A DNA stretch of 57,651 nucleotides, from assembly GCA_040005235.1 (NCBI GenBank), contig JBDTZG010000033.1, forward strand, positions 1 through 57,651. Reading direction: 5' to 3'. This stretch comes from Acidobacteriota bacterium (GTDB taxonomy: Bacteria > Acidobacteriota > Thermoanaerobaculia > Multivoradales > UBA5704). The number at the start of each line of letters is the position of its first letter. Positions within the stretch are counted from its first letter, which is position 1. Shown piece after piece: positions 23,776 to 44,586 of the stretch. The position numbers were made by a program, and so were the translations under genes. The notes under the pieces were generated by a model, which saw only the letters and a program-made list of their open reading frames with translations, was not told where the DNA came from and did not search any database.

Positions 23776-24338
23776 GGCGCAAGCCCCTTGTCGGTGAGGC
23801 AGCGTCGCAGGTCGGAAAGGCCGCGGTAGACCAGATTCTCGGTCCGCTTCGCCGTCCAGGCGAGCAGGCGCGAGGCGTCGGGCACGCCGTGTCCTTGCAG
23901 ATAGAGCGTCACGGCGAGCCGCCGGTCGCGGACCAGGTCTCCCAGGCAATCGCGGATGCCGCGGCCCACTTCCGCCGCGGCGGAAGTCGCCCCCGGGTCG
24001 GGGGTTTGGGCGGGGATCGCGGCGTGCTCGCTTTCAGATTCTTCCAGGCTCACTTCGTGCCTCCTTCTCCGGGCGCGGATCTCGTCCACGAGAGCGCTGT
24101 GCGCCACCCGGTACAGGTAAGACGAAGAAAGCTCGACCATTCCCTCACGTCGGCGGGAAAGTTCCATCACTTTGATCAAAGCCGCCTGGACCAGATCGTC
24201 GCGCCGATCCGCCAGCCACCCTGGACACACCTTGGCGACCGCCTTGGTCAAATCGTTACGCAGCCGGGCATAGTCCGGCTCGGCGTACGACGTTTCCGGA
24301 AGTCTGGGGGCCGGGCCTGGGGACGAACGATCTGGCAC
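23772..24338 (-). CDS. ECF RNA polymerase sigma factor (CHAT-associated)
   Basis: DDLVQAALIK, SYLYRVAHSALVDEIR, region 4 ...ENLVYRGLSDLRRCL. Start uncertain. Confidence 0.9.
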   Translation of the reverse strand: MPDRSSPGPAPRLPETSYAEPDYARLRNDLTKAVAKVCPGWLADRRDDLVQAALIKVMELSRRREGMVELSSSYLYRVAHSALVDEIRARRRRHEVSLEESESEHAAIPAQTPDPGATSAAAEVGRGIRDCLGDLVRDRRLAVTLYLQGHGVPDASRLLAWTAKRTENLVYRGLSDLRRCLTDKGLAP

Positions 24339-29396: not shown

Positions 29397-29449
29397 CGGT
29401 ACCCCTCCACACCACGAAATCCCTTCCGCGAGCCGAATCTTACGCCGGG

Positions 29450-29478
29450 GTGAGGGAATCGCCCCGTGACGGTCGTTC
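29450..29478 (+). promoter_or_regulatory. Putative ECF promoter GTGAGGG-N17-CGTTC
   Basis: GTGAGGGAAT-cgccccgtgacggt-CGTTC, 60 bp upstream of ATG 29539; matches the 22980-23008 motif. Confidence 0.6.
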
Positions 29479-29538
29479 CTCCTCCTGAACCCGAACGAGA
29501 TCCCGAACCCGGGGCCTCGAAAGACTCAGGAGGACGCC

Positions 29539-31482
29539 ATGTTTGCCAACATCCTTTCCCGGACGCGCCTGGAAATTTGCGCCGCGCTCTTTCTGGCCGC
29601 AACGCTCGCCTCTCCCGCTTTCGCCGTAGGTCCCTGGGCTTCGAATCCCGTCGTCTTCGGCCAGGAGGTGGGCGGTGTGGTCGATGCCGACTACAGCTCG
29701 GCCTGGAACCACTGGAAGGATCTCGGCTACGCCCCGGTCAACCTGTCCGGCGTCGAGAAGTCGGGAGCCGCCACCCGCTACAGCGGCCTCTGGCACAAAG
29801 ATCCGAGCATCGCCACCTGGACCTCGAAGCGAGGATTGACCGCCACCGCCTACCAGACCCTCTGGGACCAGCTGATCGGCCAGGGCTACCGGGTGCTCGA
29901 CCTCGACGCCCACGTCGTCTCGGGCCAGGCGCTCTACGACGCGATCTGGATCAAGGAGCAAGGGGGCAGCAAGGGGTTCAAGTCCCATCGCATCCTCACC
30001 CTGGCGCAGCTCGACACCAAAATGGCCGAGTACGCCGGGCAGCGCTTCCGGCCGATCCGGGTGAACGGCTACCGCGTCGGCAGCCAGACCTATTACGCCG
30101 CGGTCTGGGTGCAGGACGGCCTGACCGATTTCGGCTACAAGCGCGATCTCACCTCGGCGGATTACTCCTCCTGGTGGACTTTCTACAAGAACGCCGGATA
30201 TCGGCCGGTCGACATCGCGGCCTATCCGACCTCCGCGGGGCTGCGCTACGCCGGGCTCTGGGTGCGCGAAGGCGGAATCGACGGCTGGATTTCGCTGCGC
30301 GATCGGACCGCCGCGCAGATGCAGGCCGAGATCATCGCGCAGAAAAAAGCGAACTACCTGGAAGTGGATCTCGACGCCTACTACGTCGGTTCGGAGCTCC
30401 GCTACTCCGGTATCTGGATCCGCCGCCAGACGAGGAACGTCCTCACCGGCAACGTCGTGCTTTCCGGCTCGCAGATCGATCAGCTGAAGGCGAAGCTCAC
30501 GGAGTACACGACGAACGGCACCGACGGCCGCAAGGGGTCCGTCGGCTTCTATATCGAGGATCTCACCACGGGCCATTGGATCGCCTTCAACCCGAACGAG
30601 CCGTTCTATCTCGCCTCCGCCTCGAAGACCTTCATTGCGGCCAAAGAAGTTTCGATGCCGGAAATGTCGGCCGGCGACCTCTACCAGCTGCGGACCTCCG
30701 ACTGGCGCGGCGAAGCGACCCGCGGCTTCACGAAGGCCGACATTGGCGACAACCAGACGGTCGCGACCTACCTGGACCACATGATCAACAACAGCGACAG
30801 CTGCTCGACCGATCGACTGCATGGCCTGATCGAGCACTTCGACGGCGCGCTCGCGGTCAACAAGTTCCTCGATTCCCAGGCCGACATGCAGAACGTCGGC
30901 GAAATCACCACCATCTGCCAGGTCGACAAGCGGATCGAGGCGAGCGCCGACTCCTGCGTGTTTTCGGTCCCCTGCCACAGCTTCGAAAGCTGGTTCCGGT
31001 CGAACGACAAGAGCTACTCAACGGCCGCCGACATCGCGTGCTTCAACAAGCTGAACGCCTCGCCGGTTTCCACAAACAGCCGCTACGACCTCTACTACAA
31101 CAGCCTCGCCAACTCGGTCACTCCGGCCGAAGCGGGCCGCTTCTTCCGAAGCGTCGCCGACCACGATCTGCTGACCGTCTTCGACGAAGGCGATTTCGTC
31201 CGCGAGCTGGACAAGAACAACTCCTACGCGCCCCCGGCAGCCGGAGCCTTCCAAGCCTGGGGCGGCAAAGACGGCGGCAAATATAAAGTGAAGAGCTGGA
31301 TCGGTCTCGCCTGGAACTGGGATTTCGCAGCGGGCGACTACTCCTCCCTCACTCACCAGTTCAGCGTCGCGATGTTCACCGAAGACTGGACCACCGACGA
31401 CGCGACCGGGGATTCGAAAGCGTCGGCGATCATCGGCGATGCGATCAAGGTCGCGATCCCCTACCTGGTGGGCAAGCGGTAG
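29539..31482 (+). CDS. Secreted serine hydrolase (class A beta-lactamase-like) with N-terminal bacterial tandem repeats (polyglycine-hydrolase-like)
   Basis: About 5 repeats of W....GLT...Y....GYR..D....Y..LW; SxxK (ASASK), NSD, KDG; AGGAGG RBS. Confidence 0.85.
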   Translation: MFANILSRTRLEICAALFLAATLASPAFAVGPWASNPVVFGQEVGGVVDADYSSAWNHWKDLGYAPVNLSGVEKSGAATRYSGLWHKDPSIATWTSKRGLTATAYQTLWDQLIGQGYRVLDLDAHVVSGQALYDAIWIKEQGGSKGFKSHRILTLAQLDTKMAEYAGQRFRPIRVNGYRVGSQTYYAAVWVQDGLTDFGYKRDLTSADYSSWWTFYKNAGYRPVDIAAYPTSAGLRYAGLWVREGGIDGWISLRDRTAAQMQAEIIAQKKANYLEVDLDAYYVGSELRYSGIWIRRQTRNVLTGNVVLSGSQIDQLKAKLTEYTTNGTDGRKGSVGFYIEDLTTGHWIAFNPNEPFYLASASKTFIAAKEVSMPEMSAGDLYQLRTSDWRGEATRGFTKADIGDNQTVATYLDHMINNSDSCSTDRLHGLIEHFDGALAVNKFLDSQADMQNVGEITTICQVDKRIEASADSCVFSVPCHSFESWFRSNDKSYSTAADIACFNKLNASPVSTNSRYDLYYNSLANSVTPAEAGRFFRSVADHDLLTVFDEGDFVRELDKNNSYAPPAAGAFQAWGGKDGGKYKVKSWIGLAWNWDFAAGDYSSLTHQFSVAMFTEDWTTDDATGDSKASAIIGDAIKVAIPYLVGKR

Positions 31483-31495
31483 AGCGGGAGACGGA

Positions 31496-31645
31496 CCCGA
31501 GCGAGGGGTTGAAACCCCTCGCTCGCATACGCCGTCCCTGCGGGACGGAATTGGGACCTGAGATTTTTCGGGTCCTTCGCTCGTTTCAGGGACACGTCCC
31601 GTCAGGGACGTCGTAACCTAGCGAGCGATTTCAATCGCTCGCGGG
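31496..31645. repeat. Inverted REP doublet (REPIN-like)
   Basis: The left arm gcgaggggttgaaacccctcgc..gtccctgcgggac is an inverted copy of the right arm gtcccgtcagggac..gcgagcgatttcaatcgctcgc. Same family at 57540-57650. Confidence 0.85.
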
Positions 31646-31686
31646 ACTTCAGCATGCCGCATCCTCTTGCGTAGCAACCACCCTTC

Positions 31687-31703
31687 GTGTTGCAATGCAA
31701 CAC
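31687..31703. promoter_or_regulatory. Perfect palindromic operator GTGTTGCA-a-TGCAACAC
   Basis: 8-bp inverted repeat ending 1 nt before ATG 31705. Confidence 0.7.
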
Positions 31704-31704
31704 A

Positions 31705-32169
31705 ATGACGCAACAAGAATACGAACACCAAAAGCGCCTTCTCGACGAGCAGCTGCAGGCCGGGATCGCGCTTCTAGAGGCGGCCCACCGCCAGCAGCGG
31801 CGGGCGTTGGATCTGGTTTGGATGACCATGGCGGAGGGGGACATCGCGCCGGGGTTCCCGGTTCCGGCGCTTCTGGCCGCCGCGCCGGCTCGGGAGCGGG
31901 AGGCTCCCCGGCCTGCCGAGAAGCGCGTGCGCCGGCTTCCGGGCGCGCTCCAAGCCGAGGTCGAGGCTGCTCTGGAGAAGCTCCCGGAGCGGTTCGACCG
32001 GAACGATCTGCTGGCGTTGCTCCCGGGGGAACCGGATCGCAGCTCGCTGTTCCGGGTGCTTCAGGAGATGGCGGATGCCGGCCGCTTGAGGGTCGAGCTT
32101 CGCGGGGAGGGGCGCCTGCCGACGCGCTACTACAATCCGCAGGCGCCGGCCGCGGAACCGCCGGACTGA
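31705..32169 (+). CDS. Hypothetical DNA-binding protein (N-terminal coiled coil, C-terminal winged-helix-like)
   Basis: YEHQKRLLDEQLQAGIALLEAAHRQQRRALDLVW coil, A/P/R linker, LPERFDRNDLL...PDRSSLFRVLQEM...GRL....G.GR.PTRY. Confidence 0.75.
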   Translation: MTQQEYEHQKRLLDEQLQAGIALLEAAHRQQRRALDLVWMTMAEGDIAPGFPVPALLAAAPAREREAPRPAEKRVRRLPGALQAEVEAALEKLPERFDRNDLLALLPGEPDRSSLFRVLQEMADAGRLRVELRGEGRLPTRYYNPQAPAAEPPD

Positions 32170-32207
32170 GATCCGCGACCGCCGCTTCGGGCGCGGGCAC
32201 CCTCCTG

Positions 32208-32803
32208 GAGACGCGGGGAAGTGGAGCCACGCAACGCAAAACCAGTGACGCGACGCGAGGTACCGGTGCAATCACGCAACGCACTTCGGTTGCAACGCAC
32301 CGTGGCAGCTTTGAGAAGTTCGGAAGCCGGAATGCAACGCTGCGGACCCGGGATGCAACGCGAGGGAGCGGGAACGCGCAGCCGAGAACCGGCTCCCGGA
32401 GGGCGGAAGCCGCCTCCGAGCGACGGGAAACCACTTCCGTACCTCGGTGCAACGCAATCTCGTAGCTCATCACCTGGATCCTGCGTTGCGAAGGTGGTGC
32501 GTTGCGTCTCGGCGCTGGTACGCCGTGTCGCGCCAGGGGTGCGCGGTGTCTCGTCGCTGGTATTTCCAGTTGCGTCACCAGGTCCGCGCGTTGCGACAGA
32601 GGGGCGTCGTCTTGCGTGAGCGGCGCCTGGTGTTACGGGAGCGGTGCTTCGTTGCGCATCGGTGGAGCGCGGCGTCGCATCCTCGGTGCCGCGGGGTGCG
32701 TGGCCGGTGTTTCGCTCCGCCTCACCCCTTTTTCGCGTTGCCGTGGGAGGTTTTCGCGTTGCGCGGGTGGATCTCCGTCGTACGGCATCGGGCTCCGCGT
32801 CGC
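32208..32803. repeat. Head-to-head 21-bp-phased array of GCAACGC/GCGTTGC motifs
   Basis: GCAACGC-like motifs at 32208, 32250, 32271, 32292, 32334, 32355, 32449. Reverse-complement GCGTTGC-like motifs at 32483, 32504, 32525, 32546, 32567, 32588, 32609, 32630, 32672, 32735, 32756. Confidence 0.85.
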
Positions 32804-32849
32804 AGGAGGCGCGCCGAGGGCGGTTTCGTCCGCTAAGATCCGTCGCCTC

Positions 32850-33353
32850 ATGCCCTCGATGCCCTCGACCAGCGATTCCAAGTTCCTCCGCCAGGCTCGC
32901 TCGCGGTTCCTCATGCGGCTGTTCTTCCTGGGCAAGCTCCCGCTCGCCCTCTTCGCCGGATTGCGGATCGATGAAATCACCGCCGAGCGCTGTGTGGTCT
33001 CGCTGCCCTACGGCTGGCGGTCGACCAACCCATTCCGCTCGATCTATTTCGCGGCGCAAGCGATGGCCGCGGAGCTTTCGACCGGGGCGCTCGCGATGGC
33101 GGCGATCGAAGCTTCCAAAGCTCCGGTTGCGCTGTTGATCGTCGGGCTCGAAGCGACGTTCGAAAAGAAGGCTGGGGCGCGGGTGTCTTTCACCTGCGAG
33201 GCCGGCCCGGCGATCTCCGCGGCGGTCGCCCGCGCGATCGAGACGGGAGAGCCGCAGACCGTGCGGGCCGAGACGATCGGCCGGCTGCCAGACGGCGCCG
33301 TGGCCGCCCGTTTCGCCTTCACCTGGTCGTTCAAGAAGCGGTTAGGGAAATAG
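32850..33353 (+). CDS. DUF4442/YiiD-like hotdog-fold thioesterase
   Basis: KLPLALFAGLR, LPYGWRSTNPFRSIYFAAQAMAAELSTG, FEKKA, FTWSFK. Confidence 0.85.
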   Translation: MPSMPSTSDSKFLRQARSRFLMRLFFLGKLPLALFAGLRIDEITAERCVVSLPYGWRSTNPFRSIYFAAQAMAAELSTGALAMAAIEASKAPVALLIVGLEATFEKKAGARVSFTCEAGPAISAAVARAIETGEPQTVRAETIGRLPDGAVAARFAFTWSFKKRLGK

Positions 33354-33361
33354 GGCCGGGT

Positions 33362-33790
33362 CTATTCCGGATGCCTCTGACGGCTGGTGGCGATCAAAAG
33401 ATCGGAGCCGGGATTGACCGCTGCGAGCAACCGGCCAAGTTGCTCGACGGACGGCATTGTGCGCCCCTGTTCGTATCGCGCGTAGGTGTTCGGCGATGAG
33501 GCACTGAGCCGCTTTGCCGCCTCCGCAAGGGTTACCCCGTTCAGCAAACGTTGGCGCTTCAGCATCAAGGCCGTTAGCGGTGCAAAGTCGGGCGAGCCCA
33601 CTTCGAAATAACCTCCATCCCCAGGAAACACTTCGACCGAGAAACCGGTCTTGTTGACGAGCGCCTCGATGGCATCGGCGACCATCAGGTAGGCCTCGGA
33701 TCGAGTCCCGCCCTGAGTGACGACGCCTAGGATGGGTACCTCGATAGCCCAGAAGCGACCCTGCTTATGCATCCTGCCTTCGAATCTCAT
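33362..33790 (-). CDS. HicB-like antitoxin with XRE HTH
   Basis: MRFEG.....GRFWAIEVPILGVVTQG.TRSEA..M.ADAI; C-terminal HTH YARYEQGRTMPS. Confidence 0.85.
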   Translation of the reverse strand: MRFEGRMHKQGRFWAIEVPILGVVTQGGTRSEAYLMVADAIEALVNKTGFSVEVFPGDGGYFEVGSPDFAPLTALMLKRQRLLNGVTLAEAAKRLSASSPNTYARYEQGRTMPSVEQLGRLLAAVNPGSDLLIATSRQRHPE

Positions 33791-33853
33791 GACTTTGCTC
33801 CTTTGGCCTCTCGAAGAATCGCCTTCGCCGCGCTCGAGGTCGCGGCGCTTCAC
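33787..33853 (-). pseudogene. Internally deleted HicA toxin remnant
   Basis: GTG-KRRDLER start joined out of frame to AAKAILREAKGAKS*, whose TGA overlaps the hicB ATG. Confidence 0.65.
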
Positions 33854-33939
33854 GGGTGGAGAATTACACCGATCCGTGTCCAGAGCAAGGCGCTGGTGAG
33901 GAGCATGCGTATGCAAGACAGCCTGTCTCCTTTGCCGCC

Positions 33940-33969
33940 TGGCCCCCTTCTCCCCAATTCGCCGCCTCT
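33940..33969 (+). promoter_or_regulatory. Putative ECF promoter TGGCCCC-N16-CGCCTCT (copy 1)
   Basis: Identical boxes and spacing at 34797 and 43098. Confidence 0.75.
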
Positions 33970-34006
33970 CCTCGCGCCACGGATTTTGTGGCCAAAGGAG
34001 AGAACG

Positions 34007-34936
34007 ATGCGTAGACGATCGAGTTGGATTCGGCTTGCCTTGGCGGCCCTCGGGATTCTCGGAGGGTTTCTCGCCGCGGCGCTGCCCGGCGCGGCGCAGG
34101 GTTGGGACCAGGCGTATGGGAACCTGGCGAACACCGGCTTTGTGAACGTGACGACCCACGTTCCGGTTTCGCCACGGTGGATCTTTCAGCTGGACGGTTC
34201 GGTGAGCGCGGGCGGTCCTTCGGTGAGCGGCAAGGACGGCACGATCTGGGTCGGCACGGCGAACGGCACCCTTTGGGGGTTCTTGTCGAACGGCAGCGTC
34301 CTCTGCTCGCGGAACTTCAAGGAATCGACGATCACCTCCACCCCAGCGTTCTTTCCCAACGGGGATGTCGCGATCCTGGTCAGCCAGACCGTCGCCGGCT
34401 CCCCTTGGAAACAGACGTCGATCGCGCGGCTCACTCCCGCTTGCGCGATCGTCTGGAAAGTCCAGCTGCCGCAAGGTCGTACCTACCCGAGCACCGCCTC
34501 GGGGTCGGTCAAGATCTGGACCCGGAACGGCGTTCCGTTTCTGTTCGTGCATGGGCGCCAGACGATCAACGTCGACCTGACCACCGCGGACCCCGAAAGC
34601 TTCAACGAGCTGCTCGTCTACGACGCGAACGGCAGCATCTTCGCCCGGCGCCAGTCGGGGAATGGGTGCATCACGGTGAGTGGGGGTGGTGGATTCCTGA
34701 CCGCCAACAGCGCGGGCGATCCGCTTTACGGCGACATTTGGAATTTCCTGACCAGCTTCTGGCCGCCGCTCGACGTCCTTCGGCCCGCCTTAGATTTGGC
34801 CCCCATTTCCCGCGCTTCCCGCCTCTCCTTGGCAACAACCTTCAGATTGCCAAGGAGAGAACGATGCGCACACATGGGGGAGGGCCCCGGCGGGCTTTTG
34901 CCGCTTGGGGATTTGTTTTCGGTGGCTTGGGTCTAG
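34007..34936 (+). pseudogene. 3'-truncated PQQ-like beta-propeller secreted protein (paralogue of the next gene)
   Basis: WDQAYGNLANTGFVN and further motifs shared with the next gene. Similarity ends near 34690-34770, then the ORF runs through the next promoter and start. Confidence 0.65.
34797..34826 (+). promoter_or_regulatory. Putative ECF promoter TGGCCCC-N16-CGCCTCT (copy 2)
   Basis: See copies 1 and 3. Confidence 0.75.
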
Positions 34937-36282
34937 CGGCGTCGGCAGGCGCCGCGGGGGGTTGGGATCAGGCGTACGGCAACCTGGCGAATACGGGTTT
35001 CGTCAACACCACTACGAACATTCCGGTGGTGGCGAACTGGGCGTTCTCGCTGGAGGGTGAAGTGGGCACGAGCGGGCCGGCGGTCGATTCCGTCAGCGGC
35101 ACGATCTATCTCGGCTCGGCGAACGGAACGTTCTGGTCGATCTTGCCCGACGGAAAACTCAACTGCAAGCGGATGTTCAAGGACCGGTCGATCCCGTCGG
35201 TGCCCGCGATTTTTCCCAACGGCGACGTGGCGATCCTCCTAACCCGGCCCGCGGGTGATAAAAAGCAGACGGCCCTGGTGCGAATGGCGCCCAATTGCAG
35301 CGTGGTCTGGCAGGTCGACCTGCCGACCATGTTTGGCAACCCCAGCTCCGCTTCCGGCTCGGCGAAGATCTGGACGCTCGACGGCCGGTCGTTCCTCTTC
35401 GTCCACGTGCATGATTCCAACTTCGATTTTTCCTTCGAGCCGTACAGTTTCGATGAGCTGATCGTCTTCGACGACTTGGGCCGGACCTTCGCCCGGCTCC
35501 CCGTCGGGGACGGGTGCCTCGACCTCCGCGGCGGGGGCCGGTTCAGCGCCGACCCCCATCGCCGAAAGGATTCGAGCGGCTCGCCGGACTCCGACGTGGC
35601 AGGGCAAGTCGCCGTAACCACCGGCTGGCCCGATTCGACCCCGGCGATTCTGGATACGCCGCTGCACGGCTTTTCGACTCCCAGAGCTCCGCTCGTCGCG
35701 GTCACAGACGACCTTTGCGACGTACGTTTGGAGGTCCTCCAGTTCGATCCCGCGGCGGCCACCGTGGCGGGGCGCCTGGTCAAGCGCTGGGGCCATCGGG
35801 GCGAAGAGGACGGTGTGCGGCTTTCAAGCCCGACCGTCACGCCGGAAGGGTTGATCGTGTTTGGCACCAGCTGCTACCGGGTGCGAATCTACGACCTCAA
35901 CACGCTGTCGCTCCGAAGCTCTTTCGATTCGACCTACGCGGTGATGCATCCGCCAGCCTTGGCGCCCGATGCCTGGCTGGTCAATTCCGAATACGCGGCC
36001 CATCTGCTCAAGCCGGGGACCAACACCCCGATCGATACGGCACGGCCGCAGCCCGTGTACACCTTGGGCTCGGCAACCGGCGTAGCCGCGAGCCTGAACG
36101 AAATGGTCGTTCCGAACCTTCAGGAGTTGGGGGTCTGGAGCCACGATCTGCTGAGCCGCACTCACGCTCTGGATCACGAGGAATTCCGTACTTCGAGCCC
36201 GGCCTTGACGCCGGACGGGAGGCTCTACGTCGTGTCCCAGACCAGCGAAAAATCATTCCTGTTCGCGTTGGGACCGCCCTGA
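34864..36282 (+). CDS. Secreted PQQ-like beta-propeller protein
   Basis: AAGGAGAG RBS, signal peptide, W.Q..G...NTG, SGPAV..GTIYLGS.NG, SSPTV, SSPAL..DG.LYV, LFALG. Confidence 0.82.
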   Translation: MRTHGGGPRRAFAAWGFVFGGLGLAASAGAAGGWDQAYGNLANTGFVNTTTNIPVVANWAFSLEGEVGTSGPAVDSVSGTIYLGSANGTFWSILPDGKLNCKRMFKDRSIPSVPAIFPNGDVAILLTRPAGDKKQTALVRMAPNCSVVWQVDLPTMFGNPSSASGSAKIWTLDGRSFLFVHVHDSNFDFSFEPYSFDELIVFDDLGRTFARLPVGDGCLDLRGGGRFSADPHRRKDSSGSPDSDVAGQVAVTTGWPDSTPAILDTPLHGFSTPRAPLVAVTDDLCDVRLEVLQFDPAAATVAGRLVKRWGHRGEEDGVRLSSPTVTPEGLIVFGTSCYRVRIYDLNTLSLRSSFDSTYAVMHPPALAPDAWLVNSEYAAHLLKPGTNTPIDTARPQPVYTLGSATGVAASLNEMVVPNLQELGVWSHDLLSRTHALDHEEFRTSSPALTPDGRLYVVSQTSEKSFLFALGPP

Positions 36283-39200
36283 TCAGGCGGCAGGCCTCGA
36301 TCCGCGCGCGAGGCGCGGGGCGCTAAGGATCTCGGCGGCTTGCCGGGCGATTTTGCCAAAGCGCCCCGCGTTTGCGTCCCGCTCCAATTGCTCGGCGAGC
36401 GCGCGGACCCGTTCCGGATGGTCGCCGCGGGCGAGCGCGAGGCGCACTTCTAATAACCGGGTTTCCAGCAACAGGGTGCCTTGCGAGTTGGTGCGGCATT
36501 CGGCTTCGGCGGAGGCGAGCAGCCGCTCCGCCTCGGCCCAATCGCGAGTGCCGAGGGCGACGGCGGCCGACGCGAGTTTCCACTGCACCCGCGTCTCCAG
36601 CCTTTGCGACGTGGCCGCGCCGCGAGCCCGCTCGGCCCAGGCCGCCGCCTGGCGCGGCGACCCCGCTTCGCTCCAGCAGCGGACGAGGAGGATGCGGTTC
36701 AACTCGGCGGCCGGATGGTTCATTTCTTCGAGCTGGCGCAGGGAACCCTCCTCGCCGCGGCAGACCGAAGGAGAGGGGCGGGCCACCTGTCGGCGGGAGG
36801 CGAGCAAGACGGCCAAGTCGCTCGCCCGGCCCGCCTCGGGAAACAGCGCCGCGGCGCGATCGAACCAGTCGAGGGCTTGGGCGTCTTGGCCCAAGACGGC
36901 GGTCCATTCCGCGCGCAGCCAGAACAAGGTGGCGAGATCGCGTTGCGCGCCGAGCTTCCGGGCCACGGCCTCGATCTCGACCAGCAGCGCCTCGGCTTCG
37001 GTAAGCTCGCCCCGCTGTTGCAAAATCGTCGCGAGCACCGCGCGGACGCGATTGCCGCCCAAGACATTGCCCGTTTCGGCATACAGGTCCAGCGCTTTCC
37101 GCGCGTTCGACTCGGCCGCGGTCAAGTGGCCGAGGTCGACGTCGAGGTTCGCCAGATTGAAGCGGAATCGCGCCTCCTCGGCGGGATCGCTGACGGCGCC
37201 GCGGGTCGCAATGTCCAGCGCCTCCGCGATCGTCGACCGGGCTGCGACCACCTGGCCGCGGTGGCGCTGCAAGATCCCGAGGTTGTTGAGCACCCGCATG
37301 ATCCCCGCGGGATTTCCCAGCCGCCGCCGCAGCCGCAGGCTCTCCTCGCAAGCTCGCTCGGCCTCGTCGTTTTGGGCGTCGCGGATCAGCGAGGTGCAGA
37401 GCAGTTGGAGGGAGCGGGCAACACCTCCGGTTTCGCCTTGCGCGTGAAACAGAGCTTGAGCGCGCCTCGCCGCGGACCGCGCTTGCCCGTTGTCGCCGAG
37501 GGCGTCGTACGCTCCTCCCAAACTGAGCGAAGCCCGGGCCGAAAGGGCGGGGAAACCTTGGGCGAGAGCGTCGTCGGCGAGTTTTTCCGCTCGTTCCTGG
37601 ACGTCGTGCGAGCGACCCAACGGGGCGAGCGCTTCGAGCTCGATTTCGCCCAGCCGCAGGCGCTGCGAAAGAGAGGAAACCACCGGCCGCAGCTTGGCGA
37701 CGATCTCCAGCGCCTCGGCCGGCCGGCCGCCGGTCGCCAGGCTTTCGGCGAAGCGCAGGCCGACTTCCGCGCGGTCCGGCCGGAGCAGCCAGAGCGAGCG
37801 CAGCAACTCGGCCTCCTTGGCCCGCTGGCCGGAGGTTCGCAGCGCCACCGAGGCGACCAGCAGCTCGCTTTCCCGCGGCAGCTCCGCGCTGCTCGCGAGC
37901 GCCTTCTGTCCTTCGCGGTGCGCCTCTTCGTCCCGATCGGCTAACGCCAACGCGTCGGCGAGAGCGGCGTGGACGAGAGGATGGTTGGGATCGGCGGACA
38001 CCGCGGCGCGCAATGCGGAGAGGGCCGCGGTCGAATCGCCGCGCGCCGCGGCGTCGAGCCCTTGGGCGTAGCTCGCCCGGGCGGATGGGGCGACCGGCGC
38101 CGCGAGCCAGGGCGAGGCATCGGCAGCGACCGGGCGCGGAAAGGTGCCGCGCGAGGCGCCCGAGAGCCAGAGCGCGGCCACCGTAAGAAGAGCTACGACG
38201 AGGGCCGCGTTCAGCCACAGCCAGCGCCTTCGGCGAACGTGTTTGACGATTCCGTAGAGCCGGGAACCGCGCCGGGCGAGCACGGTCCGCCCTTCGAGGT
38301 AACGCACGAGATCCGCGGCGAAATCGGCGGCGGAGGCGTAGCGCGCGGCGGGCTCTTTTCGCAGCGCTTTGGCGAGGATCGCGTCGAGGTCACCGCCCAG
38401 GCCGGCGGGCTGCGGCTCCTGTTCTCGGATCGCCAGGTCGAGCGCCTCGGGACCGGTTTGGGTGAGCTTGTAGGGCCGCCGGCCGACGAGAAGTTGGTAG
38501 AGGACGACCCCGAGCGAGTAGACGTCCGAAGCGCGTTCGACCGGCTCTCCGCGAATCTGCTCGGGGCTCGCGTAGGCGGGGGTCATCGCTCGATGCCGGG
38601 TCTCCGTGACGTCCGCCGTTCCGGATTCCCCTTCGAGCAGCCGCGCGATGCCGAAGTCGAGCAGCTTCGGCTCGCCGCGTTCCGAGACCAGCAGGTTGCC
38701 GGGCTTCAAGTCCCGATGGACCACCGACGAGCCGTGCGCGTGCTCGACCGCTTGGAGAACCTTGAGGAACAGCCCGATTCGTTCGCGGAGCGTGGCCCCG
38801 GTGCGTTCGCAGTGTTCGATCAGCGTCGTGCCGCGGACCAGCTCCATCGCGAGATAGGGCTGCCCGGACGGGGTGATCCCCGCGTCGTACAGGCGCGCGA
38901 TGCCGGGATGTTCGAGCGCGGCGAGAATGCTCTGCTCGGCGCGAAACCGGCGCAGCAGGGAAGCGTCCACCCACCGGCCGAGCACCTTGAGCGCCACTTG
39001 GCGCGTGAATCCCTCGCCGAGCTGCTCGGCGATGTAGACCGTGGCGCTCCCGCCGCGGCCGATGGATGCAAGAATCCGATAGCCGGGAATCGGCTCGGGA
39101 GACTCCGGAACGGCGCCCAGCTCGCGCAGCGGCGGCTGGTCGAGCGGCGTGGTCGAGCGTTCGGCTTCGGCGAGCAGGGCGCGCAGCTCGGCCGCGAATT

Positions 39201-39312
39201 CCGGATCGTCGCCGCTCCAGCCGCGGATCGCTTCGTCGCGCTCGGGCGCCGCGAGGTCCTGCACCTGGTCGAACGCCGCGCGGAGCCGGCCGAACCGCGG
39301 GTCTCGGGTCAT
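36283..39312 (-). CDS. Ser/Thr protein kinase with TM helix and TPR region (kinase 2)
   Basis: GRGGSATVY, VALK, HRDLKPGN, DFGIA, TPAYASPEQ; TM helix after RRRR; TPR C-terminus. Confidence 0.95.
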   Translation of the reverse strand: MTRDPRFGRLRAAFDQVQDLAAPERDEAIRGWSGDDPEFAAELRALLAEAERSTTPLDQPPLRELGAVPESPEPIPGYRILASIGRGGSATVYIAEQLGEGFTRQVALKVLGRWVDASLLRRFRAEQSILAALEHPGIARLYDAGITPSGQPYLAMELVRGTTLIEHCERTGATLRERIGLFLKVLQAVEHAHGSSVVHRDLKPGNLLVSERGEPKLLDFGIARLLEGESGTADVTETRHRAMTPAYASPEQIRGEPVERASDVYSLGVVLYQLLVGRRPYKLTQTGPEALDLAIREQEPQPAGLGGDLDAILAKALRKEPAARYASAADFAADLVRYLEGRTVLARRGSRLYGIVKHVRRRRWLWLNAALVVALLTVAALWLSGASRGTFPRPVAADASPWLAAPVAPSARASYAQGLDAAARGDSTAALSALRAAVSADPNHPLVHAALADALALADRDEEAHREGQKALASSAELPRESELLVASVALRTSGQRAKEAELLRSLWLLRPDRAEVGLRFAESLATGGRPAEALEIVAKLRPVVSSLSQRLRLGEIELEALAPLGRSHDVQERAEKLADDALAQGFPALSARASLSLGGAYDALGDNGQARSAARRAQALFHAQGETGGVARSLQLLCTSLIRDAQNDEAERACEESLRLRRRLGNPAGIMRVLNNLGILQRHRGQVVAARSTIAEALDIATRGAVSDPAEEARFRFNLANLDVDLGHLTAAESNARKALDLYAETGNVLGGNRVRAVLATILQQRGELTEAEALLVEIEAVARKLGAQRDLATLFWLRAEWTAVLGQDAQALDWFDRAAALFPEAGRASDLAVLLASRRQVARPSPSVCRGEEGSLRQLEEMNHPAAELNRILLVRCWSEAGSPRQAAAWAERARGAATSQRLETRVQWKLASAAVALGTRDWAEAERLLASAEAECRTNSQGTLLLETRLLEVRLALARGDHPERVRALAEQLERDANAGRFGKIARQAAEILSAPRLARGSRPAA

Positions 39313-39352
39313 CCTCGGCCGCCTCGCCCTACCGCCATCGGCCCCGGCCTCT

Positions 39353-42300
39353 CTACCCGCGGGCGAGGCGCGGGACGCGGAGGATCTTGCCCGCCTCTTC
39401 GGCGACCTTGCCGAAAAGGCCCGCCTTCGCGTCGCGCTCCAGCTCCTCGGCCAGCGTGCGAACCCGCTCGGGGTGATCGCCCCGGGCGAGCGCGAGCCGG
39501 GTTTCGAGCAGCCGGGTCTCCATCAGGTGGTAGCCGAGCGAGACGCGGCGGCATTCCGCGGCAGCCTCTTGGAGGATTTCGTCCGCATCCGACCAACGGC
39601 GCGCGCCGAGCGCCACGGCGGCTTTAGCTAGCTTGAATTCCACCCGGATCGAAGGCAGTTGCGAAGCGGTCGCCTCTTTCTCAGAGCGGTCGAGCCAGCG
39701 CTTCGCCTGGGCGGAAAACCCCGCGTCGCTCCAGCAGCGCGAAATGCCCACCGCAAGCTCGACGGAGGTCCGATCGCCGAGCCGGGTAAGCTCCTGCTCC
39801 GACGATTCGAGCTCGCGGCAGGAGCGCTCCGAAGGTTCCGCCAGCTGCTTCCTCGAAGCCTCGAACCGGGCGATCATCTCTCCCGCGCTGACGCTTTGGA
39901 GCGGAACCGCGGTCTGGTCGTACCAGCGGCGGGCGTCGTCCATTTTTCCTTCGAGCTTCGCCAGGTCGCCGCGCTGCCAGTGAGTGTTGGCGAGGTCGCT
40001 CGGCGAACCGGCTTTCCGCGCGATCGGTTCGGCTTCGTCGAGGACGGTTCCGGCCTCGGCGAGCGCGCCGCGATACATCAGCACCACGGTGAGAGAACCG
40101 AGCGTGCGCATCAGGCTGAGCTGATTGCCGGCTTCGCGCAGGATCACGATCGCCTGGCGGAAGCCGTTTTCCGCCTCGGCGAGATTCCCCAGGTCCATGT
40201 CGAGGTTCGCGAGGTTGTGCAGATATTTTCCCTGGGCGACGCGGTCGCCGAGGACGCTCTGGCGCTCGATCTGAAGCGCTCCGGAAAACGACTCCCGGGC
40301 CTCCAGGATGAGGCCGCGGCGTCTGCGGGATATCCCCAGGTTGCTGAGGGCGCGGGCGAGACCGCTCGAATTGCCTAATTTTTTCGCCCGCCGCGAGCAC
40401 TCGCCGCACAACCTCTCGGCTTCCTCGTGGCGCGACTGCCGCACCGCCCCGAGGCACTCCAGGTTCAGCGCCCGGACGACGCCTCCGCCCTCGCCCCGCG
40501 GTACGAACAGGCGCCGGGCCTCCTCCGCGAGCGGAATCGATTGATCGCGTTGGCCCATGCCGTCCCGGCCCTGACTCTCTTGCAGCAGCGCCTGGGCGGC
40601 GAGGAGCGGCAGTTTGCGCGCCTTCGCCGCGGCGACGGTCGCCTGCGCGATCCGGGCGGCATCGACCGGGCGTCCCAGGGCGTTCATCGCTTCGGCCTCG
40701 ACCAGGTTGATCCGCAGGTCGGCCCCCGGCGGTTGGCTCTGAGCGGGCAAAGCGCGAAGTTTCGCGGCCAGCTGGAGCGCCTCATCCGGCGTTCCGCCTT
40801 CGACGAGGCTTTTGGCGAGCAGATAGCCGACCTCAAAATTGCCCGGGGCGAGCAGCCAAAGCGAGCGGCGCCGCTCCAGCTCGTCGGACTTCTTTCCCGA
40901 AGTCTGGAGCGCCACCGCTTCAATCAGCAATCGGCTCTCACGCGGTGCCCGCAGGGCCAATTGGAGCGCCTGCTGTCCCTCGGATCGGGCGAGCAGGTCG
41001 TGGCCCGCCCGGGAGTGCGCGGTCGCGAGCGCAGCGTGCACCAACGGCTGGTTGGGATCCTCTGTCTCGGCGGCGCGCAGTTTGGCGATCGCCGCCGTCG
41101 TCTCGGAGCGCGCCAAGGCGTCGAGCCCTTCGGCGTAGCTCGCCCGAGCCGCCGCCGCGATCGGCATCGCGAGCCAGGGGGAGGCGTTGGGATCGACGGC
41201 GGCCGCCCCCGAAAGTCCCCCGGCCAGCCAGATTCCGACGCCGGCCAGCAAAAGCGCCGCGAGGGCGGCGTTGAGCCAGAGCGCGCGCCGCCGACGGACC
41301 TCCTTGCCCAGGCGATAGACCAGCGAGCCGCGCCGCGCAAGGACCGACCGGCCGTCCAGATAGCGCCGCAGATCGGCCGCAAAGTCGGCGGCCGAGGCGT
41401 AGCGTTCCTCGGGCTCTTTGCGCAGCGCCTTGGCGACGATCGCGTCGAGATCGCCGCCCAGGCCCGGAGGATCCGGATCCTGATCGCGGATCGCGCGCTC
41501 CAACGCTTCGAGGCTGGTGTCGCCGATTTTGTAGGGCCGCCGACCGGTGAGCAGCTCGTAGAGGACCACGCCGAGCGAATAGATGTCCGAGGGTCGCTCG
41601 ACCGGCTCGCCGCGCACCTGCTCGGGGCTCGCGTAGGCGGGAGTCATCGCGCGATGGCGGGTCTCGGTGACGTCGAGATTCCCTGCGGCCTCCGGCGCGT
41701 GCAGCCGCGCGATGCCGAAATCGAGCAGCTTCGGCTCGCCCCGCTCGGAGACCAGGATGTTGCCCGGCTTCAAATCGCGATGGACGATCGACGAGGCGTG
41801 CGCATGCCCGACCGCTTCGAGCACCGACAGGAACAGCGCGATCCGGTCGCGCAGGGGGGGGGCCTCGATTCGCTTGCAGTGCTCGACCAGCGAGACGCCG
41901 CGCACCAGCTCCATCGCGAGGAAAGGCCGCCCCGAGGCGGTGATCCCCGCGTCGTAGAGCCGGGCGATGCCGGGATGTTCAAGAGCGGCCAAAATCCGCT
42001 GCTCGGCGCGAAATCCGCGCAGCAGCGAAGCGTCCACCCAGCGGCCGAGCACCTTGAGCGCCACCGGCCGGGTGAAGCCATCCCCCTGCTGCTCGGCGAG
42101 GTAGACGGTGGCGCTGCCGCCCCGGCCGATCGGTTCGATCAGCCGGTAGCCGGGGATCGTTTCCGGGGCTCCCGCGCCCGGTGCCTCCTCCTCCGGGGAC
42201 CCACCCTTCGAGTCGCGCAACGCGCGGAGCGGCGGAGTGTCGAGCGGCGTGGTCGAACGCTCGTCGGCGGCGAGCAGGGCGCGCAGCTCGGCCTCGAACG

Positions 42301-42412
42301 CGAGATCCGCGCCGCTCAAGCGGCGGATCGCCTCATCGCGGCCGGCCGGCCCTCCCTCGAGGACTTCGTGGAACGCCGCGCGCAGGCGACCGAAACGCTC
42401 CTCGGCAATCAT
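39353..42412 (-). CDS. Ser/Thr protein kinase with TM helix and TPR region (kinase 1)
   Basis: Same kinase motifs; ATG 42412 is ATGA-coupled to the ECF stop. Confidence 0.95.
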   Translation of the reverse strand: MIAEERFGRLRAAFHEVLEGGPAGRDEAIRRLSGADLAFEAELRALLAADERSTTPLDTPPLRALRDSKGGSPEEEAPGAGAPETIPGYRLIEPIGRGGSATVYLAEQQGDGFTRPVALKVLGRWVDASLLRGFRAEQRILAALEHPGIARLYDAGITASGRPFLAMELVRGVSLVEHCKRIEAPPLRDRIALFLSVLEAVGHAHASSIVHRDLKPGNILVSERGEPKLLDFGIARLHAPEAAGNLDVTETRHRAMTPAYASPEQVRGEPVERPSDIYSLGVVLYELLTGRRPYKIGDTSLEALERAIRDQDPDPPGLGGDLDAIVAKALRKEPEERYASAADFAADLRRYLDGRSVLARRGSLVYRLGKEVRRRRALWLNAALAALLLAGVGIWLAGGLSGAAAVDPNASPWLAMPIAAAARASYAEGLDALARSETTAAIAKLRAAETEDPNQPLVHAALATAHSRAGHDLLARSEGQQALQLALRAPRESRLLIEAVALQTSGKKSDELERRRSLWLLAPGNFEVGYLLAKSLVEGGTPDEALQLAAKLRALPAQSQPPGADLRINLVEAEAMNALGRPVDAARIAQATVAAAKARKLPLLAAQALLQESQGRDGMGQRDQSIPLAEEARRLFVPRGEGGGVVRALNLECLGAVRQSRHEEAERLCGECSRRAKKLGNSSGLARALSNLGISRRRRGLILEARESFSGALQIERQSVLGDRVAQGKYLHNLANLDMDLGNLAEAENGFRQAIVILREAGNQLSLMRTLGSLTVVLMYRGALAEAGTVLDEAEPIARKAGSPSDLANTHWQRGDLAKLEGKMDDARRWYDQTAVPLQSVSAGEMIARFEASRKQLAEPSERSCRELESSEQELTRLGDRTSVELAVGISRCWSDAGFSAQAKRWLDRSEKEATASQLPSIRVEFKLAKAAVALGARRWSDADEILQEAAAECRRVSLGYHLMETRLLETRLALARGDHPERVRTLAEELERDAKAGLFGKVAEEAGKILRVPRLARG

Positions 42413-43032
42413 CGCGGGGCCGCCGTCCCGAGGGCGCCGAGATCCTTGAGCAGCCAAGCGCGGGCGAACGCCCAATCCCGCTTCACCGTCCGGGGCGAGC
42501 ATTCAAGCACCTCCGCCGCCTCCTCGACCGTGAGGCCGCCGAAGAACCGCACCTCGACCAGCCGGGCCAGCCGCGGCTCCTCGGCCGACAATCGGTCGAG
42601 CGAGCGGTCGAGGTCGATCAACTCGGCGGCCGAGAGCGTCGATTCGACTCCTCCCGCATCGCTGTCGAGCAGCGAGACGTGAGGGGACTCCGCGCCGCGC
42701 TTCGCGGCCATCTTGCCTCGCGCGTGGTCGACCAAGATCCGGCGCATGATCCGGGAAGAGAAGGCGAAGAAATGGGTGCGGTCGTGCCACTGGATGTCGC
42801 GCAGGCCGCGCAGCTTCAAGAACGCCTCGTGCACCAACGCGGTCGGCTGGAGGGTGTGCCCCGCGCGCTCGCCCTGAAGCTGCCGGTCGGCGAGCCGGCG
42901 CAGCTCCAGATAGACGGCGGGAACCAGCCGTTCGAGCGCCTGGTCGTTGCCGCTGCGCCAGACGGCGAGCAGTTCGGTGATCTCGCGCGGATCGGTCTCC
43001 GCGCCGGATGGACCGGAAGAGCGTTCGCTCAA
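42409..43032 (-). CDS. ECF43-like sigma factor (TIGR02999 type, kinase-associated)
   Basis: ITELL..W..G...AL..L.P.VY.ELRRLA, HTLQPTALVHEA, MRRILVDHAR, RFFGGL, TVKRDW..ARAWL; TTG 43032 with GGAG RBS. Confidence 0.93.
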   Translation of the reverse strand: MSERSSGPSGAETDPREITELLAVWRSGNDQALERLVPAVYLELRRLADRQLQGERAGHTLQPTALVHEAFLKLRGLRDIQWHDRTHFFAFSSRIMRRILVDHARGKMAAKRGAESPHVSLLDSDAGGVESTLSAAELIDLDRSLDRLSAEEPRLARLVEVRFFGGLTVEEAAEVLECSPRTVKRDWAFARAWLLKDLGALGTAAPR

Positions 43033-43097
43033 GAGTAACTCCGCATTGCAGGTACCTACGATTCTGGCGCCGATCGTATCCAAAACGTTGCACGACG

Positions 43098-43127
43098 TGG
43101 CCCCAATTTGCGCGTCCCTTCGCCTCT
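43098..43127 (+). promoter_or_regulatory. Putative ECF promoter TGGCCCC-N16-CGCCTCT (copy 3)
   Basis: Divergent from the ECF43-like gene, 43 bp upstream of ATG 43171. Confidence 0.75.
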
Positions 43128-43170
43128 AGGGCAGCAGGTCCAACCGGCGGACCTTGAAACGGAGAGGCTC

Positions 43171-44517
43171 ATGCGTGGAAAACATCGGTTCCCGCTCTTT
43201 CTCGTCACCACCCTTTGTGCGTTGCCGCTCAGCGCCGCGAACTACAAAGTCCAGCATCTGAACGATAGTTCGACCCTGGGCGACGGCTGCTCGCTCCGCG
43301 AGGCGATTGCCGCCCACAACTCGTCGAACCTGAAAGGCGCCAACGAATGCGGCGCGTTCGACCCCGGTGCCGACTCGATCGAGTTTCCCGGATTGACCGG
43401 TACCCTCCGGCTCAATTCCACCCTGGGCGAGCTGGTGCTCACCGAGCCCGCGCTCACCCTGCAAGGGCCGGGAGCGAATCTGCTCGCGATCTCCGGCGGC
43501 AAGGTGATGTCGGTTCTGGTGCTCGACCGCGATCGCCCGGCCGCTTTGACCGTGCGCGGCCTCACGATCCGCGACGGGCTCGGATCTCCGGTGGCCGGCG
43601 GTCCGAGCGGCCAGGGGGGCGGCATTCGAATGGAGCTCGGCGGAGCGGTCCTCGCGCAACCGACGACGATCGTCATCGAGGATTCCGCCCTCCTGGCCAA
43701 CTCCGTTCCGTTCGCGGGAGCCTCGCGCGGCGCGGCGATCACCTCGTACGGATCTTTGGTCCTGCGCCGCAGCCTGGTGCGCTTCAATCAATCGGATTTC
43801 GGAGCGATCTTTCACACCGGCGATGCCCTGATCGAGGACTCGGAATTCAGCGACAACCTGGGCCAGTATCTGGGCTCGGCGGTCGTCCTCTACCCGCCCG
43901 GTCCATGGATCGTGCGCAGAACGCTGTTCCGCGACAACGTCGATATTCAGGACGGACCGTCGGGTCTGTTGTTGGTCGGGACTGCGGGCTCAGGAATCGT
44001 CGAGAATTGCACCTTCACCGGCAACTCCTCTTCGACCGGCAGCGTCGTGATGACCCAGGCGCCGATCACAGTGCGCAACTCGACGTTCTACGCCAACAAA
44101 GTGACCGGCTATCCCGGCGGCGGCGGAGTGCTGCACGTGGACCTCTCAACCGTCCGATTAGCCTCCAACCTGTTCGGCAAGCACGAGCTGCGCGACATTT
44201 CTGTGAACCCGAACCACGGAGCGGCGGTCGATGCGACCTACAACCTGTTTCACTCCGATGCCGCGAGCCTGCCGCCAGGGGTGGTCTGCGCCACCTCGAC
44301 TCTGGGGGGAGCGAACCTGTGCGGCGTGGCCGCTGCCGGGGTCGGTTCGCTCGGCCCCAACGGTGGATCGACCTGGACGATCCCGCTGCTGGCGGCGAGC
44401 CCTGCGATCAACGCGGGAAGCAGCCCGGGAAGCTTGACGACCGATCAACGGGGTCCCGGTTTCGCCCGAAGCGTGGGGCTTGGTACGGACATTGGTGCGT
44501 TTGAGGTCCAGCCGTAG
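43171..44517 (+). CDS. CSLREA/choice-of-anchor Q beta-helix surface protein
   Basis: GCSLREAI, beta-helix repeats, LGPNGG.T.T..L...SPAINAG...DQRG..R...DIGAFE. Confidence 0.9.
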   Translation: MRGKHRFPLFLVTTLCALPLSAANYKVQHLNDSSTLGDGCSLREAIAAHNSSNLKGANECGAFDPGADSIEFPGLTGTLRLNSTLGELVLTEPALTLQGPGANLLAISGGKVMSVLVLDRDRPAALTVRGLTIRDGLGSPVAGGPSGQGGGIRMELGGAVLAQPTTIVIEDSALLANSVPFAGASRGAAITSYGSLVLRRSLVRFNQSDFGAIFHTGDALIEDSEFSDNLGQYLGSAVVLYPPGPWIVRRTLFRDNVDIQDGPSGLLLVGTAGSGIVENCTFTGNSSSTGSVVMTQAPITVRNSTFYANKVTGYPGGGGVLHVDLSTVRLASNLFGKHELRDISVNPNHGAAVDATYNLFHSDAASLPPGVVCATSTLGGANLCGVAAAGVGSLGPNGGSTWTIPLLAASPAINAGSSPGSLTTDQRGPGFARSVGLGTDIGAFEVQP

Positions 44518-44586
44518 GCGTTACGAGAGCCCGGGGCCTCTTTTAGATACCGTTACCGCCGAAAAATAAGGGCCACGGTGCCGTGA

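Follow-up and report, generated by a model that had tools for sequence, protein, structure and literature searches.

An ECF-type promoter-like motif overlaps the anti-Shine-Dalgarno arm of predicted leader hairpins in a soil acidobacterium

Leader hairpins of four genes

The stretch of DNA considered here, termed the window, is the entire contig C87 (57,651 nucleotides, nt) from the genome of a soil acidobacterium (label G000; 6.22 Mb in 140 contigs, 66% G+C). Four of its genes are preceded by inverted repeats in which the Shine-Dalgarno sequence (SD) of the gene sits in the 3' arm, and the 5' (anti-SD) arm begins within or directly after a -10-like element: CGCCTCT in three leaders (34820-34826, 33963-33969, and 43121-43127) and CGTT in the fourth (29474-29477). 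These genes, all of which start with ATG (34864, 34007, 43171, and 29539, respectively), encode A2, its paralogue A1 (A2 and its paralogues are here termed the A family), a CSLREA protein, and a serine hydrolase (Table 1). We consider whether promoters read by an extracytoplasmic function (ECF) sigma factor may be nested in the anti-SD arms, such that the promoter from which an RNA originates would determine whether that RNA is translated.

The two arms of the A2 repeat are 13 nt long, 100% complementary, and separated by an 11-nt loop; the 13-mer occurs in the window only as these two arms, and 0 of 100 shuffles gave two matches. In the A1 leader, arms of 15 nt (33966-33980 and 33988-34002) are 80% complementary. 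A preliminary description of this DNA had reported inverted repeats in all four leaders, with the anti-SD arm in or just past the -10 box; the repeat search recovers each of the four at the same coordinates, and the placement of the arm holds in every leader.

Table 1. Positions of the genes, promoter-like motifs, and hairpin arms in the window.
Feature	Position	Strand	Remarks
Second ECF-type promoter-like motif, GGGAAT-N14-CGTT	29454..29477	+	ahead of the hydrolase gene
Hydrolase leader pairing	29480..29534	+	TCCTCCTGA (29480-29488), directly after CGTT, with TCAGGAGGA (29526-29534, SD)
Hydrolase gene	29539..31482	+	polyglycine-hydrolase-like repeats and beta-lactamase-family serine hydrolase
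A1 promoter motif	33940..33969	+	TGGCCCC 33940-33946, CGCCTCT 33963-33969
A1 hairpin	33966..34002	+	outer stem CTCTCCT/AGGAGAG, 3x3 internal loop, inner stem GCCAC/GTGGC beginning at the putative start (~33974-33976)
A1 reading frame	34007..34936	+	truncated copy, now runs through the putative A2 promoter and the hairpin
A2 -35-like element, TGGCCCC	34797..34803	+	kept in 13/13 A-family leaders
A2 -10-like element, CGCCTCT	34820..34826	+	the anti-SD arm opens with its final four bases
A2 5' arm (anti-SD), CTCTCCTTGGCAA	34823..34835	+	spans roughly -10 to +3 when -10 is assigned to the final C of CGCC
A2 3' arm, TTGCCAAGGAGAG	34847..34859	+	contains the SD AAGGAGAG (34852-34859), four bases ahead of ATG 34864
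A2 gene	34864..36282	+	472 amino acids, secreted-looking; no family passes a curated threshold (faint sign of a beta-propeller)
Two Ser/Thr protein kinase-TPR genes	36283..42502	-	at 39353-42502 and 36283-39312, following the sigma gene
ECF sigma factor gene	42409..43083	-	matches Pfam Sigma70_ECF and TIGR02999; probably recognizes the motif
CSLREA promoter motif	43098..43127	+	
CSLREA leader pairings	43122..43168	+	GCCTCT (43122-43127)/AGAGGC (43163-43168) around AGGTCC (43136-43141)/GGACCT (43149-43154)
CSLREA gene	43171..44517	+	right-handed beta-helix, choice-of-anchor Q protein

A bipartite promoter-like motif and its likely sigma factor

The A1, A2, and CSLREA leaders all carry TGGCCCC-N16-CGCCTCT. 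A strict search of the genome returned four matches, namely these three and one on contig C118 (about one is expected by chance on a rough estimate), and a weight matrix derived from 27 sites in eight genomes and two metagenome contigs recovers five sites above 18 bits, i.e., the strict four and one on contig C83. All five lie 60-110 nt ahead of a start codon with an SD. Among the eight genomes of the genus that were searched, each has two to eight copies of TGGCCCC-N16-CGCCT, vs. two to five for a reversed control. The form with a T-run after TGGCCCC precedes few families: the A family, the CSLREA genes, a Cys/Ser/Thr-rich 71-amino-acid peptide (leader of ~109 nt), class D (a secreted protein), class E (leader of ~110 nt), and the C83 gene. 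Across the eight genomes, these gene classes run from A to F, and in sister genomes the motif precedes four to five families besides the A family. Two blocks at a fixed spacing, N16 here where ~16-17 nt is expected, stand ahead of several unrelated genes and near a sigma factor gene, which is the architecture of an ECF promoter, and the earlier proposal that the -10 element belongs to an ECF-type promoter is borne out by this conserved bipartite motif adjoining an ECF sigma gene. A sigma-54 reading of TGGCCCC was rejected: the GG-to-GC spacing is inconsistent among sites (by eye). The five sites outline a clean regulon of as many promoters and offer a candidate motif for a kinase-linked ECF sigma of Acidobacteriota that had gone unstudied.

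The promoters outside the window have features of their own. The fourth, on C118 (locus L070, 2969-3184, minus strand), precedes the 71-amino-acid peptide, which has an KKLNLNRETVRALE-type leader and a Cys/Ser/Thr-rich core, resembles a modified-peptide precursor, and is followed by a 668-amino-acid gene without a Pfam match. Its ~109-nt RNA leader includes a G+C-rich hairpin conserved in five genomes, and the SD pairs inside this leader, in the same way in the long and short forms considered below. The fifth promoter, on C83 (locus L026, 2-1456, minus strand), precedes a secreted-looking protein with a squalene-hopene-cyclase C-terminal/prenyltransferase toroid domain. In three related genomes (L021, L045, and L048 in G007, G002, and G001, respectively), motif-bearing leaders of ~110 nt share the block GCCGTGGCCATGGTGGC...TTCTC and may be structured; the motif search found none of this leader class in G000.

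The sigma factor gene (PF07638, E 1.2e-55; TIGR02999, 222 bits vs. a cut-off of 126) is divergent from the CSLREA gene, and the A genes lie on the opposite flank of the sigma-kinase genes. Two genes with Pkinase and TPR domains follow directly downstream of it on the same strand. No anti-sigma domain was named in Pfam scans of the neighboring genes, although no dedicated search was made. Sigma orthologues of 86-98% identity occur in the same arrangement in four related genomes (G001, G002, G003, and G007), and the divergent sigma-CSLREA pair is kept in the last three of these. In G006, the best sigma has 51% identity and there is no credible motif site; in G005 (85% complete), the sigma has 83% identity and no A gene was found with the query used. 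G004 has an A gene though its best sigma is only 62% identical. From this association, the sigma factor likely reads TGGCCCC-N16-CGCCTYY. The family to which it belongs is large, and each genome of the genus has 7-14 paralogues of the TIGR02999-type sigma at E ≤1e-30.

The hydrolase leader bears a different motif. Seven orthologous hydrolase leaders share GGTGAGGGAAT-N14-CGTTCCTC, which has an ECF-like look (GGAAT ... CGTT), and in the window CCTCCTCC directly follows CGTT. The two further G000 sites of GGTGAGGGAAT-N14-CGTT continue CAAAAGG and CGAAGAG, without CCTCC, and therefore the CCTCC run is not needed by this promoter type. The core pairing TCCTCC/GGAGGA is kept in five of the seven orthologues and cut to 5 bp in two, and changes in the flanking TGA/TCA are uncompensated (by eye). 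As far as these sequences go, the hydrolase leader would be an independent case of an anti-SD arm beside an ECF-type -10 element. In 22389-24338 (minus strand), a third ECF-type sigma gene (Sigma70_r2) lies with a zf-HC2 anti-sigma gene. A copy of GGTGAGGGAAT-N14-CGTT stands just past this pair, at ~23004 (minus strand), and a small gene and a CHAT-domain protein gene (19704-22370) come after it; another copy precedes a gene on C56. An Rfam covariance-model scan of 28000-46000 (E up to 1) gave no match at the leaders; its sole match was an Acido-Lenti-1 RNA just past the hydrolase gene (31502-31547, plus strand; 35.5 bits against a gathering threshold of 37, E 6.5e-05, full model length).

Predicted folds and comparison among relatives

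The geometry of CGTC-type ECF -10 elements served as the model for placing the transcription start. With the last C of CGCC taken as -10, we infer a start ~34-36 nt after the beginning of the motif, i.e., at ~34831-34835 for A2, 33974-33976 for A1, and 43132-43136 for CSLREA. A start at ~34831-34835 means that the 5' arm of A2 spans -10 to ~+3, so that most of it would be absent from an RNA made at this promoter. Long and short forms of the leaders were folded, and the probability that the SD pairs upstream (P) was taken from thermodynamic predictions on isolated 90-nt RNAs. The long A2 leader (34797-34878) folds at -36 kcal/mol (z -5.92; matched by 0 of 200 shuffles) with P 1.000, whereas the short form, beginning at 34831, folds at -7.7 kcal/mol (z -0.46) with P 0.002. 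For A1, P is 0.988 in the long form, with a modest z of -1.60 (13 of 200 shuffles as good), and 0.006 in the short form, which has a GCCACG/UGUGGC hairpin at its 5' end. The long hydrolase leader is likewise modest (z -2.33; 5 of 200 shuffles as good). The earlier expectation that long leaders would bury the SD and short leaders free it is thus matched by A1 and A2, though not by CSLREA, which is taken up below. Across the A family, the long form has P ≥0.8 in all 11 leaders tested; P falls below 0.3 in nine of 11 when the leader begins 34 nt after the motif start, and to ≤0.31 in eight of 13 when it begins at +36.

The chance of such pairing was estimated from a background set of 865 G000 genes with a strong SD, collected with a rough caller (third-position G+C, and GGAG 4-10 nt ahead of ATG or GTG) of which at least one call is doubtful. 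Background folds were taken over -75 to +15, and complements were scanned as Watson-Crick runs covering GGAG, at most 57 nt upstream. Mean P in this set is 0.48, and only 0.1% of the leaders attain the A2 value of 1.000 and 1.5% the A1 value; 6.1% reach 0.9 and 3.8% reach 0.95. Complements of at least 7 bp occur in 2.7% of real leaders and 2.2% of shuffles, those of at least 9 bp in four of 865 (one being the hydrolase leader) and 0.15% of shuffles, those of at least 10 bp in one of 865 and none of the shuffles, and those of at least 11 bp in 0 of 865 and 0 of 2595 shuffles. Genome-wide, there is a thin tail without enrichment, and the 13-bp A2 stem lies beyond that tail.

Perfect anti-SD complements of 8-10 bp within 57 nt upstream were seen in 10 of the 865 leaders (on C64, C38, C75, C18, and C113). 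On C18 and C113, the 5' arm adjoins a -10-like element by eye, and the same design may recur at other promoters.

In a swap test, the 3' part of each A-family leader was joined to other upstream sequences: mean P was 0.33-0.63 with random genomic 44-mers and 0.60-0.77 with promoters of other regulon classes, while the cognate promoters gave P 0.81-1.00. Of 150 random 44-mers, no more than 0.7% equalled the cognate value in six of the 13 leaders, and 2% did so in one. The A family adds specific complementarity beyond the anti-SD likeness of the promoter family as a whole, which follows from its being pyrimidine-rich from -35 to +1.

These 13 A-family leaders, all of which retain the motif, comprise 11 from G000-G004, G007, and G022 and two distinct ones from metagenome contigs (six loci with the leader present in four, of which one equals the G007 leader, two are mutually identical, and one is a new A1-type leader). 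A search of genome contigs for more relatives returned just six already-known loci, and the sequences compared are few and non-independent. The A2-type stem of 13 bp in G000 is 11 bp in G007 and in a single species from the metagenomes. G002 and G003 have a decayed 5' arm and a 3' arm that is still recognizable (cognate duplexes of -6.8 and -10.0 kcal/mol). The five A1-type leaders retain both the outer and the inner stem, and in the G022 gene and both paralogues of G001 the inner sequences differ and the outer stems measure 7-8 bp. In G022, the outer stem reads GTCTCCT/AGGAGAC, vs. CTCTCCT/AGGAGAG elsewhere: both sides have changed, the arm is shifted by 3 nt, and on the 5' side the change falls on the final position of the -10 heptamer. 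When arms were exchanged between lineages, cognate A2-type duplexes (-24 to -27 kcal/mol) were stronger than those of foreign 5' arms with the A2-type 3' arm (-12 to -14.5), as were cognates of the A1 type (-19.5 to -25 vs. -13 to -19 for swaps) and of G022 (-20.2 vs. -12). The arms are therefore co-adapted in three lineages, with cognates 5-13 kcal/mol better than between-lineage swaps; the two genes of G001 show no such advantage.

The surroundings of the leaders bear on whether RNA may enter from upstream. Co-directional upstream genes end 5-33 nt ahead of the -35 element in G001, G004, G002, G007, G000, and a metagenome contig, too close for a terminator to fit between. A same-strand DUF4442 gene stops 19 nt (G001) and 15 nt (G004) ahead of the motif, and in the tandem pairs of G007, G002, G000, and the metagenome contigs, the motif of the second gene starts 5-33 nt past the stop of the first. 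A scan of 33300-36400 found no sigma-70-like promoter site and two terminator-like sites, both inside coding sequence (3.2 expected); between A1 and A2, there was neither a terminator-like nor a sigma-70-like site. Read-through into the leaders is plausible on this gene arrangement. Among A2-type orthologues, a stem of 11-13 bp persists in the three that have a co-directional neighbor immediately upstream, and the two without a stem (G002 and G003) have only a divergent helix-turn-helix gene there; stem presence thus appears to track the upstream co-directional gene in five of five, albeit in few and related sequences.

In the window, a 140-amino-acid HTH_3 gene (33371-33790, minus strand; antitoxin-type by eye) separates A1 from the DUF4442 gene. 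G001 and G004 lack it at the matching position, their DUF4442 stop being 15-19 nt away from the motif, and the window shares a conserved stretch upstream of it, GGAGAATTACACCGATCCGTGT, with G002 and G003. Relative to the G007 paralogue, A1 has lost its 3' part to a deletion of ~0.7 kb: its original stop (TAG, 34791-34793) is now in another frame, and the A1 frame overlaps A2 by 73 nt. Ribosomes translating this extended frame could open the A2 hairpin on read-through RNA.

Promoter choice, alternative explanations, and known systems

We propose that TGGCCCC-N16-CGCCTYY is the target promoter of the neighboring kinase-linked ECF sigma factor and that, in A-family genes and most clearly at 34864, the DNA from -10 to ~+3 doubles as the 5' strand of a hairpin with the SD in its 3' strand. 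Polymerase starting from the nested promoter would begin at or after the end of the 5' strand and would yield an mRNA with a free ribosome-binding site; RNA entering from upstream would carry both strands, fold, and hide that site. If the nested-promoter RNA is open and the upstream RNA occluded, translation would be licensed by the choice of promoter. The inner stems of the A1 and CSLREA types would stay as 5'-terminal hairpins of the short mRNA and may stabilize it. The sequences, the conserved motif, the predicted folds, their controls, and the co-adaptation of the arms are what the analysis shows; that this sigma uses the motif as a promoter, the start position, the occurrence of read-through, and a block of translation by the hairpin in the cell are what we infer from them, and we hold the proposal as a whole with middling confidence, the case for and against being about evenly balanced. 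The earlier claim that ECF-started RNA would be translated and read-through RNA occluded is favored by an arm lying at -10 to +1 and by the folds of A1 and A2, and fails to extend to CSLREA; its corollary, that the genes would be insulated from read-through, gains from the co-directional genes ending 5-33 nt upstream and loses from the tandem arrays, whose members share one regulon.

Several observations weigh against the proposal. The long CSLREA leader has P 0.674 and z +0.37, and 127 of 200 shuffles fold equally well, which is not above chance. SD pairing is predicted commonly in a genome of 66% G+C, given that 16.8% of the 865 background leaders reach P 0.8, and SD complementarity shows no genome-wide enrichment over shuffles, complements shorter than 8 bp being slightly depleted in real leaders. 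Because the motif is pyrimidine-rich, part of the pairing comes free: in six of the 13 A-family leaders, 4.7-6.7% of random 44-mers match the cognate value, and in the CSLREA (three), D (three), and C83 (one) leaders, the cognate promoter is no better than others, L030 excepted. P stays at 0.44-0.65 in four of 13 leaders begun at +36, the stem is lost in two of the five A2-type orthologues, and RNAalifold on a MAFFT alignment of the 13 leaders gave no consensus pairs, MAFFT having left the arms out of register. A1-type leaders keep the stem behind the same divergent helix-turn-helix gene, the upstream genes of A1 and of the hydrolase gene in G000 are divergent and not co-directional, and insulation would have no obvious benefit in tandem arrays, where the preceding gene has a promoter of the same kind. 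Template-switch mutation in quasi-palindromes is another possible source of perfect arms.

The main rival is a by-product explanation, in which the C/T-rich -10/discriminator (CGCCTYYCC) needed by the sigma factor naturally complements GGAG, the inner stems protect the short mRNA from decay, the perfect arms may stem from template switching, and occlusion of read-through RNA may occur without being what selection keeps. Non-cognate promoters of the regulon lift SD pairing well above random sequence, the CC after CGCCTYY is also found in classes with ~110-nt leaders, and the inner stems of A1 and CSLREA start at the putative +1 to +3, 36-38 nt in from the beginning of the motif, where class C leaders show a small hairpin as well (by eye); the loss of outer pairing in two orthologues and the chance-level CSLREA stem point the same way. 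This explanation sits less well with the A2-type stem, which runs continuously from -10 to +3 and is mostly impossible in an ECF-started RNA (short-form z -0.46), with the compensatory change of G022 falling inside the -10 heptamer, with a hydrolase promoter type that does not need CCTCC after CGTT, and with stem loss accompanying loss of the upstream co-directional gene in all five A2-type cases (few and related as these are). We regard it as rather unlikely, and as the best of the alternatives.

That the hairpin belongs instead to the end of the upstream cistron, as a processing site, a 3'-end stabilizer, or a terminator without a U-tract, might be suggested by its place ~30 nt past the original A1 stop (TAG 34791), and 5-33 nt past upstream stops elsewhere, and by a stable stem in a long A2 leader of -36 kcal/mol overall. 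We consider this improbable: no T-run, as expected of an intrinsic terminator, follows 34859, the 3' arm is always the SD, and the same hairpin type stands ahead of A1, which has no co-directional upstream gene in G000. Only a slim prospect is left for a translational switch in which the hairpin lies inside a mature mRNA begun upstream of 34823 and acts as an RNA thermometer or is opened by a small RNA or protein. SD-sequestering hairpins of similar size do act so elsewhere, but this would require another promoter, and 33300-36400 holds no sigma-70-like site; the gap between upstream stop and motif is just 5-33 nt, the stem takes in the end of the conserved bipartite motif, and Rfam gives no match there. 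A role of the repeat as DNA (an operator of a dimeric regulator, or a cruciform over -10 to +25 modulating the promoter) is very improbable, since, although a perfect 13-bp palindromic pair overlaps the promoter, the arm sequences vary among paralogues and orthologues while pairing stays, unlike an operator, the spacer varies from 7 to 15 nt, and the 3' arm is always the SD.

A wider form of the nested-promoter proposal seems to us possible but doubtful: promoter-nested anti-SD arms may be a regular design rule for ECF genes of this lineage. Any gene lying close behind another with no terminator between would have its sigma-specific promoter within the very strand that shuts off its ribosome-binding site, with the kinase-activated sigma as the sole route to protein, operon-style or pervasive read-through RNA translationally silent, and the stem decaying once the upstream co-directional gene is lost. 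Were the nested-promoter proposal true, a trick of T4 late genes and transposons would serve ordinary chromosomal genes of an ECF regulon, with the producing promoter deciding translation. RNA level would then not predict protein in compact, terminator-poor genomes, which matters for transcriptomes and bears on how ECF regulons are defined, and the leaders would offer a natural insulator part for circuits with orthogonal ECF sigmas.

With respect to the sigma factor, the closest comparison is with ECF43. Passages of PMC8999054 and PMC13147305 describe ECF43 sigmas (EcfP/PknT and EcfK/PknS) that are activated by Ser/Thr kinases and in which STTA/QTTA replaces the acidic DAED of sigma-2.2, and a section of Supplementary Text S2 of PMC7826278 gives the predicted ECF43 motif as GTC (-35)/CAG (-10) and the 2021 group as Proteobacteria only. 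The sigma factor of the window shares the Sigma70_ECF domain and an adjacent TPR kinase, with no anti-sigma domain named by Pfam among the scanned neighbors. Its acidic sigma-2.2 motif may be replaced as well: the translation reads LQPTALVHEA, in which QPTA looks like the QTTA of ECF43. It differs in having two kinase genes, to which its link is putative, a host in Thermoanaerobaculia, and the motif TGGCCCC/CGCCT in place of the printed motif. As this motif is unlike GTC/CAG and the ECF43 group is proteobacterial, we term the sigma ECF43-like and not a member.

The arrangement of promoter and hairpin has its counterpart in phage T4. As described in parts of PMC3014915, the T4 genes e (lysozyme), soc, 49, and I-TevI have late promoters that lie within the 5' strand of a hairpin sequestering the SD; longer upstream transcripts hide the SD or AUG, and nested-promoter transcripts, which lack the 5' strand, are translated. 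The likeness lies in an alternative-sigma promoter within the DNA of the 5' strand, with upstream transcripts occluded and nested ones open, and in the predicted folds the SD of upstream transcripts is likewise held in a stable helix here (P 1.000 for A2 and 0.988 for A1). The T4 case belongs to a phage temporal programme (gp55 sigma, TATAAATA) and its effect was shown experimentally; here, the setting is a chromosomal kinase-linked ECF regulon with a G+C-rich motif, and all beyond the sequence is predicted. For IS10, Davis, Simons and Kleckner reportedly found in 1985 that read-through RNA sequesters the translation signals and that transcripts begun at the promoter of the element itself are translated. 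In IS10, the gene is a transposase gene, the promoter is of the housekeeping type, and the purpose is to limit transposition. In RNA thermometers and other SD-sequestering leaders, a stretch of pyrimidines upstream forms a hairpin with the SD that a signal opens; these keep the whole hairpin in the mature mRNA, whereas here the 5' strand is expected to be absent from the regulated transcript. The protection of IS10/Tn10 from external promoters is also noted in a portion of PMC13181058. Judged by titles and the beginnings of abstracts, no paper on a nested anti-SD design in an ECF regulon was found. From the sequences compared, it is plausible that a design known from T4 and IS10 occurs here in a new setting, the cellular kinase-linked ECF regulon of Thermoanaerobaculia.

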